IMG/VR virus record: IMGVR_UViG_2537562192_000020
Strand: one strand, 5' to 3'
Length of the DNA stretch: 38,194 bases
Source of the DNA: a virus
Taxonomy: Duplodnaviria; Heunggongvirae; Uroviricota; Caudoviricetes
Part shown: positions 2,997-21,660 of the stretch, piece after piece
Layout of the letters: each line of letters opens with the position of its first letter
How positions within the stretch are numbered: position 1 is the first letter of the stretch
Made by a program: the position numbers and the translations under genes
The notes under the pieces: model-generated
Database searches by the model: none
Told to the model about the DNA's origin: nothing
Seen by the model: only the letters and a program-made list of their open reading frames with translations

Positions 2997-3121
2997 TGTC
3001 ACCAGGAGCCGCGGCTCCTTTGCGTATCCTTTTATGTCTCTTCACCGTCTGGTCGGTGTCCTGCTGAGACTGCTAACTTCCTGTTTTTATTGGTGTTGTC
3101 CTTATACCGTCCAATCATGAT

Positions 3122-3166
3122 TGGTGGAGCTGGCGGGAGTTGAACCCGCGTCCGAAATTCCTACAT
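3122..3166. repeat. prophage attachment-site direct repeat (left copy), identical to the 3' terminal 45 nt of ssrA
   Basis: 45/45 identity with 37135-37179 (TGGTGGAGCTGGCGGGAGTTGAACCCGCGTCCGAAATTCCTACAT); sequences diverge immediately outside. Confidence 0.85.
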
Positions 3167-3251
3167 AGCATTTCAATGTCTGTAAAAACAATGATTTGCT
3201 TTGATTTTCAGTTGGTTAGATTTATGCGGTGTCTGTCCGTTTTATGGGTTT

Positions 3252-3920
3252 TTAACTTTCTGCCGCCAAAGTGCCGCCACTGCATTTGTCGCCTAAACGC
3301 CTATTTGAAACGATTAATCTCTCGGCGATCTTAATCTTGGAGAGCTTATCTAGGCAGATAAAGCATATTGCTACTCCCGATACCACAAAATAGCTGCTTA
3401 AACCAAAGTATTGCCAAGTAGTTAGATGGTTTATCTTCTCCATCATCTTAGCACTTACTACAACAGAATAACTGAAAGGAAGTGCTACGATGAGACTGCC
3501 CATGAAGTAAATTAGAGTTGTTATAATTTTTATTAATTTTCTATATATGCTGTATTTATATCTTTTTTTATTCCATGCGAATATTTCTTTATGGGTGGTA
3601 ATGGAAATTAGACTTTGACATTTGGAATAATCATCTATATCGCTAACGGGGTTTGTTGTGTTGAGTAATATTAATCTTTGTTTTTTTGTCAATGTGTTAT
3701 CTTTGGTTAATGCAGCAATGCCGTAATCTTCCGCCAGTTTTTTGAAGGTCGGATCTTCACTGCTTTTATACATCTGATATGAAAATTCGCTAATGTTTTT
3801 ACGTGATGTGAATAGTTTGTCTTTTTTATAAGTCCACCCTGTTTTAAGCCCTAATAAGGATATAATGGCAGATAGGGAAGGGAATAATATTTTTATAAGT
3901 AACTCTAGTTCGCTATTCAT
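3252..3920 (-). CDS. hypothetical membrane protein (AT-rich moron between int and attL)
   Basis: 222-aa ORF with about 3 predicted hydrophobic helices; strongly AT-rich relative to the phage backbone; GAGGT RBS before ATG at 3920; immediately downstream of int on the same strand. Confidence 0.55.
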   Translation of the reverse strand: MNSELELLIKILFPSLSAIISLLGLKTGWTYKKDKLFTSRKNISEFSYQMYKSSEDPTFKKLAEDYGIAALTKDNTLTKKQRLILLNTTNPVSDIDDYSKCQSLISITTHKEIFAWNKKRYKYSIYRKLIKIITTLIYFMGSLIVALPFSYSVVVSAKMMEKINHLTTWQYFGLSSYFVVSGVAICFICLDKLSKIKIAERLIVSNRRLGDKCSGGTLAAES

Positions 3921-3930
3921 AAATTACTAC

Positions 3931-4947
3931 TTACCTCAAATTAAATAAAGGATTTTTAGTTACGGCATCTTCTAAATGGTCTGGGGCGAAGTGTGCATAG
4001 ACCATGGTCATTTTTATATCTGAATGTCCTAGGATATCCCGCAAAACCAATATGTTTCCACCATTCATCATAAAATGGCTAGCGAATGTATGACGCAGAA
4101 CGTGAGTACATTGACCCTCTGGCAGATCGATACCAGCCCGCTTTACTGCACGCTCAAAGGCTTTTCTGCATGGGGTGAATAACTTCCCCCTATTCTTAGG
4201 CAGTTCTTCATATAAATCCTTAGAAATAGGCACAGTTCGGTTTTTCTTGCCTTTGGTCTTGGTATAAGTGATACGGTATTTTGATACCTGATGACTCTGC
4301 AGGTTTTCGGCTTCGCTCCAGCGTGCGCCGGTGGCCAGGCATATTTTTGCAATCAAAAGCAGGCTGGAGCTTTGAGAATCGGCGCAGGCATCCAGCAGAC
4401 GTTTAATTTCTTCCGGGGTCAGGAACGCCAATTCACTCTCAGCAATTTTAAATGTTGGCAGCCCAGCAAGCGGGTTGGGGGCTGACCAGTGGCCCAGCTT
4501 TTTCAGTGTACCAAAAACAGATGATAGATTGCGCTGTTCAAGGTTTACCGTGCGGGGCTTAACGGGCGACATAAACGTGCCATCTTCATTTCGTACTTCA
4601 CCTTTTAACCGTGCTTCGCGGTATTTCGTAAAGTCACCGGCTGTCAGTTCTGAAGCGATGGGATCGCCTAGACCATTACAGATAATTCTAAGTTTCGCTA
4701 TGAGGCGCTTGGGGTCTGCGAGTGTTTGACCATACAGGGAATACCACTGCTCAATTAATTCTGATAGGTGTCGCCGATCTTCCTTTTCCCCCAGCCATGG
4801 TTTTTTGTTCACTTCTTCCATTGTGAAGCTTTCAAAAGCAATGGCTTCGCCTTTCGTAGCAAATTGCTTACGCACGCGCTTGCCATTGCGTCCATTGGGA
4901 TAGCACTCGCACAACCATTTACCGTTTGGCTGTTTTCTGACAGTCAT
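3931..4947 (-). CDS. int: tyrosine integrase (P2/186 Int family)
   Basis: 338 aa; C-terminal R...HxLRHT...Y catalytic signature (VLRHTFASHF...MVYAH); adjacent to att repeat. Confidence 0.9.
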   Translation of the reverse strand: MTVRKQPNGKWLCECYPNGRNGKRVRKQFATKGEAIAFESFTMEEVNKKPWLGEKEDRRHLSELIEQWYSLYGQTLADPKRLIAKLRIICNGLGDPIASELTAGDFTKYREARLKGEVRNEDGTFMSPVKPRTVNLEQRNLSSVFGTLKKLGHWSAPNPLAGLPTFKIAESELAFLTPEEIKRLLDACADSQSSSLLLIAKICLATGARWSEAENLQSHQVSKYRITYTKTKGKKNRTVPISKDLYEELPKNRGKLFTPCRKAFERAVKRAGIDLPEGQCTHVLRHTFASHFMMNGGNILVLRDILGHSDIKMTMVYAHFAPDHLEDAVTKNPLFNLR

Positions 4948-12088: not shown

Positions 12089-12133
12089 GCGTAGATCATG
12101 CAGGTGCATGAAAACCACTACATAAAGCGGGCA

Positions 12134-12152
12134 GGCGTGGCGGGGATACGAG
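12134..12152. other. candidate cos site (cohesive-end sequence of P2/186 type)
   Basis: GGCGTGGCGGGGATACGAG; first 13 nt match my recollection of the 186/P2 19-nt cohesive end (GGCG[T/A]GGCGGGGAAAGCA). Confidence 0.45.
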
Positions 12153-12292
12153 CGCGCGCCGAAGCGATTACGTAAGAGTTTTGGCTATTGATGTCATAGT
12201 GAACTTAATGATGGAGAAAGTGTCAACCTATGTGTAAACTACAGTTAGTAAGATAAAGAGATATGAGATGAAACAATTTCAAGGAGGGCGGC

Positions 12293-13102
12293 ATGAGTAC
12301 TAACAGCGAACGTATGTCCAATGCGCCCGTTTACTATGCATTGGTACAGGTAAAGTTTACTCCAATAGCTGCAATGAGTAAGTATGTTCCAGACATACAA
12401 GATGCGCTAAGAGTTGAGGGATTTCCTTTATTTGAGGTTTCCAATACAACTCAGTTGAAATTTGAAATAAAAAACCCCAATGAGCCACCGGTACATTCAT
12501 TTGAGCCTGTGACAAGTTGGTTGATGATTGATGCAGATAGAAGATCTGGTTTTGTTTTAGGCAACGATTTCATTACGTTCCATACAACATATTATGATAA
12601 CCATGTATCTTTCATCTCGTCATTGATACTTGGTCTGAGCAAAGTTCTAGAATTTGCTAAGCCATCGCTGTTAAGTCGGATTGGGCTTCGATATTTGGAT
12701 GCTGTGTTTCCTGAGAAAAGCGAAACAATTGAGCAGTATCTTGTAAAGGAACTTCATGGTGTTGATTTCGGATGGACGCCAATACAGTCTATACAAGAGT
12801 CCGTATATCAGACATGTGTTGAGCCATTGATCCCTAATGGATTTATGGTTTCACGAATACATAAGATGAATGGTCAGCTAGGTTTTCCGCCAGATATGAT
12901 TCCTAATGGTTTACTGCCGTTGCCGAGATTTAGTAACACAGAGCATCGTATGCACGCAATAATTGATACAGATCATTATGTTGAAGGCAACATGTCAACT
13001 GATTTGCAGTTAATTGAAAAACAGATTCTTTCGTTGCATAGTAAAGTTAAAGAAGCATTTGAAGGCATGGTTTCAGATTTTGCCCGTACTAAATGGCACT
13101 GA
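12293..13102 (+). CDS. hypothetical protein, cargo gene 1 of cos-proximal cassette
   Basis: 269 aa; AGGAGGG RBS; AT-rich; contains RIGLRYLD segment; no similarity to P2/186 core proteins recognised. Confidence 0.7.
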   Translation: MSTNSERMSNAPVYYALVQVKFTPIAAMSKYVPDIQDALRVEGFPLFEVSNTTQLKFEIKNPNEPPVHSFEPVTSWLMIDADRRSGFVLGNDFITFHTTYYDNHVSFISSLILGLSKVLEFAKPSLLSRIGLRYLDAVFPEKSETIEQYLVKELHGVDFGWTPIQSIQESVYQTCVEPLIPNGFMVSRIHKMNGQLGFPPDMIPNGLLPLPRFSNTEHRMHAIIDTDHYVEGNMSTDLQLIEKQILSLHSKVKEAFEGMVSDFARTKWH

Positions 13103-13121
13103 AACAACGGAGGTGACTAAA

Positions 13122-13784
13122 ATGTATGCAATTCCCACCGGAAGCATAGGCTCTGTAGATCGATATTCTCCAAATTTGCAGTCAAGCTCATGTGTATCAG
13201 GTGTTGTTGCTGTCGCCGCATCTTTACTATTAGTTGGTACGGGGGCTTCATACCCTGTAAATGCTTATAAGCAATGGCGTCAGTATGTTCAGCCAAGGGT
13301 TCAGTTTGCATTTGATTCCATAGAATCAACGTACACGCCTGCAATTTCTCCTGAGGTTGATGTCAGGAATGTTGCCCAACATTTAGCTAATATTCGAGAA
13401 GTGCTGTCTCCATCAATGTCAGAACTGGCAAAGGATTTGGGGATAACTCGGCAGGCTCTCTATAAATGGTTGTCAGGGGAGAACCAGCCTGATGATGCTT
13501 CAAAAGTGCAATTCATTACCAACCTTAGTAATGTCGCTGACTCTTTTTCCAAAGCTGGACTCCATGATGCGAAGCTATTGGTGAAAATGAAAGCATTTAA
13601 TGGTAAGTCATTAATGGACGTAGTAAAAGAAGGTGAGGATTGGAATAGGGCAGTTCAGGTATTGATTGATGAAGCTAAAGCGATGAATGCTGCTGCTGAA
13701 TCGGCCAATTACTTAGCAAGCAAGGCGAAACCGACAGATGATTGGAAGTCATCTATTTCAATTCCTGGAACGGTAGAGGAATAA
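13122..13784 (+). CDS. hypothetical HTH (XRE-type) protein with N-terminal hydrophobic segment, cargo gene 2
   Basis: GGAGGTGA RBS 9 nt before ATG 13122; hydrophobic stretch VSGVVAVAASLLLVGTGA; HTH SMSELAKDLGITRQALYKWL. Confidence 0.6.
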   Translation: MYAIPTGSIGSVDRYSPNLQSSSCVSGVVAVAASLLLVGTGASYPVNAYKQWRQYVQPRVQFAFDSIESTYTPAISPEVDVRNVAQHLANIREVLSPSMSELAKDLGITRQALYKWLSGENQPDDASKVQFITNLSNVADSFSKAGLHDAKLLVKMKAFNGKSLMDVVKEGEDWNRAVQVLIDEAKAMNAAAESANYLASKAKPTDDWKSSISIPGTVEE

Positions 13785-13793
13785 ATCACATTT

Positions 13794-14642
13794 ATGTTGG
13801 TACGAGGAACATCATGGCGTCAGGGGCATGTACTTAAACATGATGATGCCGTTTCACTTGGAATTCTGCAGCCTGATGAAACGAACCATAAAGTTGTAGT
13901 TATAACGCATGATTGTGATTTACAGAGTAATTCAGAAAAAAACGTGGAACTGATGTTTGGCCCCTTGAAAAAGGGGTCAAGCAGGATGAAAAGAGCTAAG
14001 CATCCGAGAATACTCGATCTATGTTTTGAAAACCCAGAAAGTGCGAAGAAGAATGCAGTAGAGCTCCGGCATGAAAGGAAAGTCATCATTCCTAAAGAAG
14101 CTTTCTGTTGTGAGGAAAACGATCCAGCATTCTCCATTAGCACAGAAGAGAAACAAGCTCTTAAGCAATGGTTAGCTGCTAAGTATGGTCGTCCAGCGTT
14201 TCCTAACTCGTTTGAAGAGCGCTTGCGGGCTTACGACGAGGATAAAAAGTTTATTTTCGAAAAAGAAGTTGCGGATATTATCGCCACAAACGCAGAGCAT
14301 TTGATCGGAGTTTTTTTCGATTTGGGCGAAGAAAGATTTAACGATCTTGAGGAAGGCATACCATATGAGCTTTCTATCAATGTTGTTTATGATGCAACTG
14401 AAGGTGGCCCCGATGCCAGAAGAGCGGCTGAACAAACATGTTCTGATCTAAAGGCTTTGTTTTATAAGTTTTATGGTGATCCAACCTTGGGGCATTCAGA
14501 ACTTATAGAATTGAATACGTGCATAGCTGTTGCTGATACTCATTTCTCCCTGTATGCATTGAGGCGGATGGATCAATGGAGGGTAGAATACATCAGCCTT
14601 GAAGAAGATTCATATGGCGATTTCATTGGTGCCGGTGTTTAA
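13794..14642 (+). CDS. hypothetical acidic protein, cargo gene 3
   Basis: 282-aa ORF 9 bp after gene 2; no recognisable motif. Confidence 0.55.
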   Translation: MLVRGTSWRQGHVLKHDDAVSLGILQPDETNHKVVVITHDCDLQSNSEKNVELMFGPLKKGSSRMKRAKHPRILDLCFENPESAKKNAVELRHERKVIIPKEAFCCEENDPAFSISTEEKQALKQWLAAKYGRPAFPNSFEERLRAYDEDKKFIFEKEVADIIATNAEHLIGVFFDLGEERFNDLEEGIPYELSINVVYDATEGGPDARRAAEQTCSDLKALFYKFYGDPTLGHSELIELNTCIAVADTHFSLYALRRMDQWRVEYISLEEDSYGDFIGAGV

Positions 14643-20951: not shown

Positions 20952-21167
20952 ATGACGCTTGAGCGAATCAGCGCCTTTATCACGTATTGCATCGCCGTCG
21001 TGCTGGCCTGGCTGGGCGATTTGTCCATCAAGGATGCCTCAACGCTGGGCGGCCTGATGATTGGTGTGCTGATGCTGGCTATCAACTGGTACTACAAACA
21101 CAAAGCCTACCAGCTTCTGCGCGACGGGCAGATCTCGCGGGAGGACTATGAATCCATCAATCGTTAA
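20952..21167 (+). CDS. putative holin (class II, possible pinholin)
   Basis: 71 aa with two hydrophobic helices and charged C-terminus, directly upstream of endolysin. Confidence 0.6.
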   Translation: MTLERISAFITYCIAVVLAWLGDLSIKDASTLGGLMIGVLMLAINWYYKHKAYQLLRDGQISREDYESINR

Positions 21168-21660
21168 ACGCTGCCTTGTCGGGGCCGTGCTGGCTATTGC
21201 TGCCACGCTGCCGGGTTTTCAGCAGCTTCACACCTCCGTGGAGGGGCTGAAACTGATTGCCGATTACGAAGGCTGTCGTCTGCAGCCGTATCAGTGCAGC
21301 GCGGGTGTCTGGACCGACGGCATTGGTAATACATCGGGCGTCATTCCCGGCAAAACAATCACGGAACGACAGGCAGCAGAAGGGCTGATCTCCAACGTGC
21401 TGCGTGTGGAGCGGGCACTGGAAAGGTGTGTGAAGCAACAGCCACCACAGAAGGTGTATGACGCTACGGTGTCGTTTGCCTTCAACGTGGGGACGGGCAA
21501 TGCCTGCAGCTCCACGCTGGTGAAATTGCTCAATCAGCGGCGCTGGGCGGATGCGTGCCGACAGTTGCCGCGCTGGGTTTATGTAAAAGGTGTGTTTAAT
21601 CAGGGGCTGGATAACCGCCGTGCGCGGGAGATGGCCTGGTGTTTACAGGGAGCAAACTGA
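21148..21660 (+). CDS. SAR-type endolysin (T4-lysozyme-like, phage 21 R-like)
   Basis: N-terminal hydrophobic anchor CLVGAVLAIAATL; EG...D...T catalytic region; C-terminal FNVGTGN...LPRWVYVKG resembles recalled R21. Confidence 0.7.
   Translation: MNPSIVKRCLVGAVLAIAATLPGFQQLHTSVEGLKLIADYEGCRLQPYQCSAGVWTDGIGNTSGVIPGKTITERQAAEGLISNVLRVERALERCVKQQPPQKVYDATVSFAFNVGTGNACSSTLVKLLNQRRWADACRQLPRWVYVKGVFNQGLDNRRAREMAWCLQGAN

Follow-up and report, generated by a model that had tools for sequence, protein, structure and literature searches.

An antitoxin-like helix-turn-helix regulator with a conserved N-terminal module, encoded in a catalogued, widespread and uncharacterised three-gene cassette of P2-like prophages

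Membrane-tethered one-component regulators such as ToxR, CadC and BcrR, and the bitopic XRE-type protein RodZ, carry their helix-turn-helix (HTH) at the N terminus, followed by a robust transmembrane (TM) segment and a periplasmic or membrane sensor domain. In the antitoxin HigA2 of Vibrio cholerae, an XRE HTH is preceded by a disordered N-terminal segment that binds its partner and folds on binding (PMC5416850, PMC11006873). In toxin-antitoxin-chaperone (TAC) systems, which act in phage defence, an extension of the antitoxin is bound by a third protein (PMC5105189, PMC11618068, bioRxiv 10.1101/2024.02.24.581848). The gpA-gpQ hotspot of P2-like prophages is a reservoir of anti-phage systems (Rousset et al. 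2022). Here we describe a three-gene cassette that occupies this hotspot in a P2-like prophage of Escherichia coli, represented by the 38,194-nucleotide virus record IMGVR_UViG_2537562192_000020; the whole of that stretch is the window in what follows. Gene 1 encodes a TIGR04255-family protein, gene 2 an XRE-type HTH protein with a hydrophobic stretch near its N terminus, and gene 3 a protein with a predicted MazF-like fold. The cassette has already been catalogued, is widespread and is uncharacterised, and gene 2 would encode the regulator of a toxin-antitoxin-like three-gene unit.

Judged by their conservation, the N-terminal ~60 residues of the gene 2 protein are a sequence-specific, previously undescribed module and not a generic anchor followed by a linker. 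We derived a family profile from 108 non-redundant segments anchored on a conserved Thr-Gly, with positions counted from the Thr. The profile is hydrophobic only from -12 to -2 and dips at -6, where Ser, Gly or Thr is found. At the end of this run stands a near-invariant G-T-G-[S/A]-x-[Y/F] motif, with Gly at -1 in 96 of the 108 segments, Ser or Ala at +2 in 86, and Tyr or Phe at +4 in 98. Farther along are a Trp at +12 (103 segments), an Arg or Lys at +19 (87%), and an alternating V-x-F-x-hydrophobic strand at +20 to +24. In alignments made without the anchor, L37, T40, G41 and W52 are nearly invariant among the homologues. AlphaFold2, supplied with 75 relatives, models residues 1-41 as coil, with a predicted local distance difference test (pLDDT) of ~30, and residues 46-59 as a helix of moderate confidence.

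The role of the module is suggested by natural gene fusions. In the Arenicellales loci L087 (positions 3088-4432), L093 and L096 (both 3103-4423), and in the database proteins P0336, P0381 and P0387, TIGR04255 is joined to the HTH and C-terminal domain in single polypeptides of 402-448 residues. The fusions fall in at least two to three divergent lineages of the HTH family. Every one lacks the N-terminal tail, the hydrophobic run, the GTGSxY motif and the Trp helix, and has a polar linker instead; all are predicted to be soluble. Protein 3 is encoded downstream of the fusion in the three genomic loci. We also counted the co-occurrence of motif and TIGR04255 over non-redundant loci, leaving out the short-form homologue P0364 (994 bp of context). 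Where TIGR04255 is a separate gene, the motif is present in 75 loci and its strict form is absent from 5, namely three G-S-G-S variants, one G-T-G-R-G-Y variant and one frameshifted copy. Where TIGR04255 is fused to the HTH protein, the motif is present in none and absent from three; where TIGR04255 is missing, in two orphan short forms, it is present in neither. Since the module is lost where TIGR04255 is fused or absent, it would couple the regulator to TIGR04255 in trans and be dispensable in cis. And since protein 3 is kept beside the three genomic fusions, the module is unlikely to be what neutralises protein 3; the conserved C-terminal tail of the regulator may be the better candidate for that task.

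The reading that we favour, and to which we give an even chance of being right, is that the gene 2 protein acts as a cytoplasmic, DNA-binding, antitoxin-like autoregulator in the middle of a tripartite module, with its N-terminal module coupling it to the TIGR04255 protein. The HTH would bind heptamer repeats upstream of gene 1 and autoregulate the operon, while the conserved C-terminal tail or the C-terminal domain would restrain the MazF-fold protein. The N-terminal module would mainly join the regulator, non-covalently, to the TIGR04255 protein. Its likely form would be a hydrophobic strand, a tight turn and a helix, disordered alone and folding on the partner, as in HigA2. As sensor or stabiliser, the TIGR04255 protein would then determine if the regulator keeps the effector in check, a logic comparable to that of TAC defence systems.

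The hydrophobic stretch itself is well defined. The initial annotation had noted an ~18-residue hydrophobic run ahead of an XRE-type HTH, and both features hold up. The run, VSGVVAVAASLLLVGTGA, spans residues 25-42; over the best 19-residue segment (24-42), the Kyte-Doolittle mean is 2.03 and the Hessa free energies sum to +1.5 kcal/mol. For comparison, we scored 37 proteins of the window for the same sum, in kcal/mol. The LysA-like protein scored -3.2, the tape measure protein -1.0, the open reading frame (ORF) at 3252-3920 +0.2, the gene 2 protein +1.5 and the Rz-like anchor +2.1, and the other 32 proteins scored +5.4 or higher. Because only 5 of the 37 reach +2.1 or lower, such a stretch goes far past what chance would give in a soluble protein. 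Among 104 non-redundant relatives, the Hessa sum has a median of +4.0 and none lies at 0 or below; 12 lie at +2.1 or below and 30 at +5.4 or above, in the soluble range. Ahead of the Thr, the stretch that contains no charged or strongly polar residue has a median length of 12 residues in these relatives. The corresponding segment is polar in intact cassettes of Klebsiella (L059/P0318) and Acidithiobacillus (L064, L076), which keep G-[T/S]-G and then the Tyr, and it is likewise polar in the Atlantibacter homologue P0056. With this median, these polar variants and the fusions that lack the run, a hydrophobic anchor is not conserved across the family.

Several observations weigh against the reading of a cytoplasmic regulator coupled to TIGR04255. 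The E. coli stretch scores like membrane segments of the same phage, within the range of the bona fide ones in both Hessa sum and Kyte-Doolittle mean and far from the soluble proteins. Phobius assigns one TM segment to the gene 2 protein (Rousset et al. 2022, Table S5B, with the comment '1 TM in protein 2'). Lys and Arg lie mostly on the C-terminal side of the run (3 vs 1), a bias that fits an N-out/C-in anchor, and the small residues that recur at -6, -2 and +2, spaced four apart, could be a helix-packing motif. Low AlphaFold2 confidence may only reflect the shallow alignment of 75 sequences. The fusions reveal that a functional link exists and that a fused protein can do without the module, rather than where a binding surface lies. 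Finally, the invariant polar residues of the TIGR04255 protein (R129, R133, D136, E144, H155, E169, D201, H221, D225, D227 and H228) suggest that it has a site for catalysis or ligand binding and is not a passive chaperone.

Much of this evidence, together with the presence of a hydrophobic run in most relatives, is what would be expected if residues ~24-42 were, in the enterobacterial clade at least, a true N-out/C-in transmembrane helix by which the regulator is tethered to the inner membrane. Such a helix might dimerise through its small-xxx-small pattern, and regulation might respond to membrane events or the complex might simply sit at the membrane. Yet the run is only ~11-12 residues long in the family and marginal by its Hessa sums, it is polar in several intact cassettes, and it is missing from the fusions. 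AlphaFold2 gives coil and not helix at this place, the near-invariant G-T-G-S-x-Y at the end of the run is atypical of a generic anchor, and the conserved operator-like repeats described below imply work on DNA. There is also no extracytoplasmic domain, only a tail of ~23 residues, so that the coupling of a membrane signal to the neighbouring genes, which the initial annotation had proposed, is speculative. Of its membrane-anchored DNA-binding protein, then, the hydrophobic stretch and the HTH are borne out, whereas the anchor is not established. We regard a true anchor as possible though rather doubtful, and favour coupling to a partner over it. In the enterobacterial variant, where the run is unusually hydrophobic, the regulator may associate transiently with the membrane.

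The hydrophobic N terminus lends itself to two further explanations. It could mainly be a degron or aggregation-prone segment, akin to a chaperone-addiction (ChAD) element, that keeps the regulator short-lived when unshielded, with the TIGR04255 protein as its stabiliser; this would make proteolysis the switch and would be a special case of the coupling that we favour. Published TAC systems work in this way in phage defence (PMC5105189, PMC6377645, PMC11618068), and here too there are three genes and an extension on an antitoxin-like protein. The predicted disorder of residues 1-41 and the loss of the extension on fusion to TIGR04255 point in the same direction. However, TIGR04255 has no detectable similarity to SecB or any chaperone, its invariant polar residues point to catalysis or ligand binding, and the extension stands at the N terminus, the opposite end from ChAD elements. 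We therefore consider a degron unlikely. Alternatively, the segment could be a weakly hydrophobic, reversible anchor resembling a signal-anchor-release domain. The regulator would be held at the energised inner membrane of the resting lysogen, and phage injection or holin-type depolarisation would free it; it would then change over to, or away from, the TIGR04255 partner and unleash the MazF-fold effector, giving a tripartite abortive-infection module that reads membrane state. We think this scenario quite unlikely.

Both the module and the stretch depend on where translation begins. The long ORF of 220 residues is the real product, because RefSeq has the same start, the length and the N-terminal positions are conserved in homologues, and there is no usable internal start. 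The ATG at 13122-13124, proposed at the outset together with an upstream ribosome-binding site, lies 8 nt from the GGAGG core of a Shine-Dalgarno sequence (Table 1) and 19 nt after the TGA stop of gene 1 (13100-13102). RefSeq/PGAP annotates identical coordinates (WP_001368407.1, 'transcriptional regulator'). We found 77 homologues, nearly all of 207-229 residues, and ~70 of them, down to 40% identity, keep that length. Within the first 105 codons the only in-frame starts are ATG1, TTG19, GTG94 and ATG99. Codons 19, 94 and 99 have no ribosome-binding site, and a start at codon 19 would still keep the hydrophobic run.

Public records are inconsistent on this point: a 122-residue form that begins at M99 (window position 13416) is annotated on more than 130 contigs, and 175- and 186-residue forms of a commoner E. 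coli variant are also on record. Such records could be taken to support the small soluble HTH protein from an internal Met that the initial annotation offered as an alternative. A related idea is a Sec signal peptide cleaved after G-T-G-A, as T-G-[A/S] fits the -3/-1 rule for signal peptidase I. Neither agrees with the rest of the evidence. There is no in-frame start between codons 19 and 94, and both GTG94 and M99 lie inside the HTH domain without a Shine-Dalgarno sequence; the M99 form would lack the first helix of that domain. Across phyla, the protein sequence of the N-terminal module is conserved. As for export, the 23-residue n-region has no net positive charge, and exporting a DNA-binding domain would conflict with the conserved operator-like repeats. 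A short or exported product is thus very improbable.

Table 1. Positions in the window of the gene 2 protein, its parts and the neighbouring elements of the cassette
Feature	Coordinates	Strand	Basis
Heptamer repeats TGTCAAC-N5-TGTAAAC, operator-like	12221..12240	+	Motif scan, conserved across loci
Gene 1, TIGR04255-family protein, 269 aa, soluble	12293..13102	+	NCBIfam TIGR04255
Shine-Dalgarno sequence of gene 2, GGAGGTGA	13109..13116	+	Read from sequence
Gene 2, 220-aa XRE-HTH antitoxin-like regulator	13122..13784	+	ORF, Pfam, RefSeq, homologues, AlphaFold2, Foldseek
Residues 1-23, variable polar N-terminal tail (1 K/R, 1 D/E)	13122..13190	+	Sequence, alignment
Residues 24-42, hydrophobic stretch CVSGVVAVAASLLLVGTGA	13191..13247	+	Hydropathy, window controls, family profile
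Residues 39-44, G-T-G-A-S-Y, near-invariant G-T-G-[S/A]-x-[Y/F] motif	13236..13253	+	Anchored profile, unanchored alignments
Residues 46-59, amphipathic helix with invariant W52 and conserved R/K59	13257..13298	+	AlphaFold2, profile
Residues 77-125, XRE/Cro-C1 helix-turn-helix domain	13350..13496	+	Pfam HTH_3; pLDDT 87-89
Residues 126-200, helical C-domain; with the HTH resembles antitoxins MbcA and NatR	13497..13721	+	Foldseek
Residues 201-220 and stop, conserved low-confidence tail K-P-T-D-D-W-K-S-S-I-S-I-P-G	13722..13784	+	Alignment, AlphaFold2, fusions
Gene 3, 282 aa, MazF/Kid/CcdB-like N-domain and alpha/beta C-part; candidate toxin/effector	13794..14642	+	Fold matches

The folded part of the gene 2 protein gives it its antitoxin-like character. 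The segment SMSELAKDLGITRQALYKWL (residues 98-117) that had been identified as an XRE-type HTH falls within a match to Pfam HTH_3 (PF01381; residues 98-124, E 5.5e-5, 23.6 bits against a cut-off of 23), and 73 of 75 family members match the same model. AlphaFold2 predicts residues 77-200 at pLDDT 85-91 as an XRE HTH followed by a helical domain. Searched against the PDB with Foldseek, this part matches the antitoxin MbcA best (6fkg_C, E 4e-3, probability 1.00, TM-score by target 0.73 over 110 columns) and NatR next (8qnl, E 1e-2), with HigA2 (5jaa and 5j9i) also among the matches, all of which is fold-level evidence with modest E-values. The predicted resemblance to MbcA and NatR is one of fold and architecture only. 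The DUF2384 signature was not found by Pfam at E up to 0.1 in the query, nor among the families most matched by the 75 relatives, and PDB sequence searches with all three proteins, as single sequences and as profiles, returned nothing useful, the best being MbcA at E 0.25 for the gene 2 profile. NCBIfam and Pfam give weak 'addiction module antidote' matches for gene 2, and PADLOC only weak matches to the HTH region. Matches in PHROGs were limited to a generic regulator family and one family of unknown function. Following the folded part is the conserved tail, in which W208 and S213 are invariant and K201, I214 and P215 nearly so. It is predicted at pLDDT 47-57, is kept in the fusions, and may be an effector-binding peptide. 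In this fold, and in the MazF-fold protein encoded downstream, the antitoxin-like nature first suggested for the protein finds support.

A repeat element upstream of the operon points to the DNA on which the HTH may act. The direct heptamer repeats lie ~55 nt upstream of the first start codon of the operon. The pattern GTCAAC-N3-7-GTAAAC occurs once in the window (12222-12239) against an expectation of 0.03, and once in 71 of 97 loci, in 70 of them directly ahead of gene 1 and on its strand; the 71st match, in the orphan locus L007, is far from the gene and probably due to chance. The consensus over 41 non-redundant loci is tGTCAACCaaggTGTAAACTGACAAC-N5-TGTCAACC, and heptamers of the forms TGTCAAC, TGTAAAC, TGACAAC and TGTCAAC are kept across phyla (for example, L012 3458-3475 and L013 3460-3477). 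Because so conserved an element moves with a mobile operon across phyla, the repeats are most simply read as the operator of the operon's own HTH protein, which would accordingly work on DNA. The control of neighbouring genes that had been envisaged for this protein is thus probable, given a conserved repeat upstream of 12293. The repeats probably overlap the promoter; when the region upstream of gene 1 was scanned with a simple consensus, no convincing sigma-70 promoter came up, and sites were fewer than in shuffled controls. Palindromes upstream of gene 1 were considered as well and rejected as weak, the conserved element being the direct repeats. As a separate observation, locus L017 of Serratia sp. 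L9 carries GAGATAGT in ~5 tandem copies (~3086-3130) between the operator-like element and gene 1, and the window has a single degenerate copy of that repeat, GATAAAGAGATATGAGATG.

The neighbouring genes would supply the other two parts of the unit. Gene 1 matches the NCBIfam model TIGR04255 over its full length (E 4e-53). We found no match to it in Pfam, PADLOC or PDB sequence searches, and no SecB match; Pfam scans of 24 TIGR04255 relatives gave noise only. In gene 3, the N-terminal domain (~residues 1-110, 13794-14123) is predicted to be an SH3-like barrel with MazF, Kid and CcdB as its best fold matches, and the C-terminal part weakly resembles minimal nucleotidyltransferases. At the sequence level, Pfam found no PemK_toxin or CcdB signature in the query and 44 relatives (noise only), and there was no RES, ART or PADLOC match. 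An invariant H-D-C-D motif stands at residues 39-42 of protein 3 (13908-13919), after the second strand of the MazF-like barrel, and may be an active site.

The cassette is found well beyond this prophage. A scan of one genome per species placed it in 272 species-level loci, of which we fetched 80. In essentially all of the 80, TIGR04255, the HTH protein and protein 3 follow one another in that order on one strand and tightly spaced. The taxa include Gamma-, Beta- and Alphaproteobacteria, Chlamydiales, Nitrospirae, Chloroflexota, Gemmatimonas, Bryobacteraceae and Acidothermus. Outside prophages, the cassette adjoins BrxR and an SNF2 helicase, Abi_2, or Mrr with AbiEi/AbiEii, surroundings that fit a defence or addiction role. 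On one metagenome contig, L008, a defence island that holds a PARIS-like AAA_21/DUF4435 protein, GmrSD and AAA_15 also encodes P0077, an orphan HTH homologue of the short form. P0077 adjoins transposases and a fragment of a protein-3 homologue, and looks like a decayed copy of the cassette.

Within E. coli, the cassette is 100% identical in several complete genomes. The annotation of one of these loci, in NZ_CP027586, reads, in order, gpA replication endonuclease, a small hypothetical protein, a DinI-like protein, a TIGR04255 family protein, a 'transcriptional regulator' (gene 2) and a hypothetical protein, after which portal and terminase follow on the opposite strand. The three cargo genes thus occupy the P2 gpA-gpQ hotspot and adjoin cos. 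The complete cassette is present in 18 of 5,426 complete E. coli genomes, and a 54%-identical variant at the same locus is much commoner. Rousset et al. (2022, Table S5B) enter the cassette under the name 'HTH_31' (system 59) and count 69 occurrences of it; the three proteins of that entry differ from those of the window by at most 1-2 residues each. In the accessible part of Table S2 of the same study, the cassette is absent from the tested systems. We also considered whether it might be the validated three-gene P2 system 'hp + hp + hp' (Rst_3HP), and rejected this because the proteins are unrelated by inspection. A literature search for TIGR04255 or the three RefSeq accessions found no papers, and the terms searched in a 2026 preprint on P2/P4 hotspots did not turn up the cassette.

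The window also holds a cos-like sequence, GGCAGGCGTGGCGGGGATACGAGCGCGCGC (~12118-12150), whose reverse complement is the cos region of the Rousset clone pFR109. This places the cassette in the interval from cos to gpQ; the validated 'hp + hp + hp' cargo is found instead in the interval from cos to DinI/gpA, which suggests that two insertion points flank cos. Two other products of the window have hydrophobic segments. An endolysin-like protein (21148-21660, + strand) has a weakly hydrophobic, Ala/Gly-rich N terminus (MNPSIVKRCLVGAVLAIAATLPGFQQL; Hessa +5.5) that resembles a signal-anchor-release domain. A 222-residue ORF (3252-3920, - strand) has strongly hydrophobic segments (Kyte-Doolittle 2.15, Hessa +0.2) and is probably a membrane protein.

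The cassette sits in a validated phage-defence hotspot of P2-like prophages and in defence islands, in at least 272 species, without a match to a defence-system model. If the N-terminal module does couple the regulator to its neighbour, the unit would be a new tripartite toxin-antitoxin-like architecture, and it would offer a first clue to what the widespread TIGR04255 family does. Should the run prove to be a membrane anchor, the protein would be an unusual antitoxin and repressor tethered by its N terminus. The analysis defines these parts: operator-like repeats, a candidate docking module, natural fusions as controls, and a MazF-fold candidate effector with an invariant H-D-C-D.

How, then, does the gene 2 protein compare with the described systems? 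With ToxR, CadC, BcrR and RodZ it shares a DNA-binding HTH and a hydrophobic segment, and these proteins are the precedent for the membrane-linked regulator of the initial annotation. Unlike in them, the run comes before the HTH, is marginal in the family as a whole, and leaves only ~23 residues that could be extracytoplasmic. With antitoxins of the MbcA, NatR and ParS type it shares, in residues ~77-200, an HTH followed by a helical domain with the fold of their toxin-binding domain, MbcA and NatR being the best structural matches, and gene 2 likewise stands immediately upstream of a putative toxin gene. It differs in that it lacks the DUF2384 signature and in its partner, which has a MazF-like fold, whereas theirs are RES/ART-fold toxins that target NAD. 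Further differences are the added ~60 residues of the N-terminal module and TIGR04255 as a third gene that is obligatory. Membership in the type II antitoxin class is suggested indirectly, by gene order, the MazF-fold partner and the operator-like repeats.

The two closest parallels to the N-terminal module are HigA2 and the TAC systems. In HigA2 a disordered N-terminal segment precedes an XRE HTH, as a low-confidence segment does here, and HigA2 is among the fold matches. However, the N-terminal segment of HigA2 neutralises a RelE-type toxin, whereas the gene 2 fusions point to TIGR04255, and not to the downstream protein, as the partner of the module; gene 2 also has an additional C-terminal domain and a conserved tail. 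Compared with TAC systems, the third protein is TIGR04255 and not SecB-like, the extension is N-terminal and not C-terminal, and the order of the genes differs; in PADLOC-DB v2.0.0, genes 1 and 3 have no matching model, and the matches of gene 2 are weak and confined to the HTH region. What the cassette has in common with TAC systems, CmdTAC included, is an antitoxin-like protein with a hydrophobic extension that appears to depend on a third protein, and a place in defence islands and prophage hotspots.

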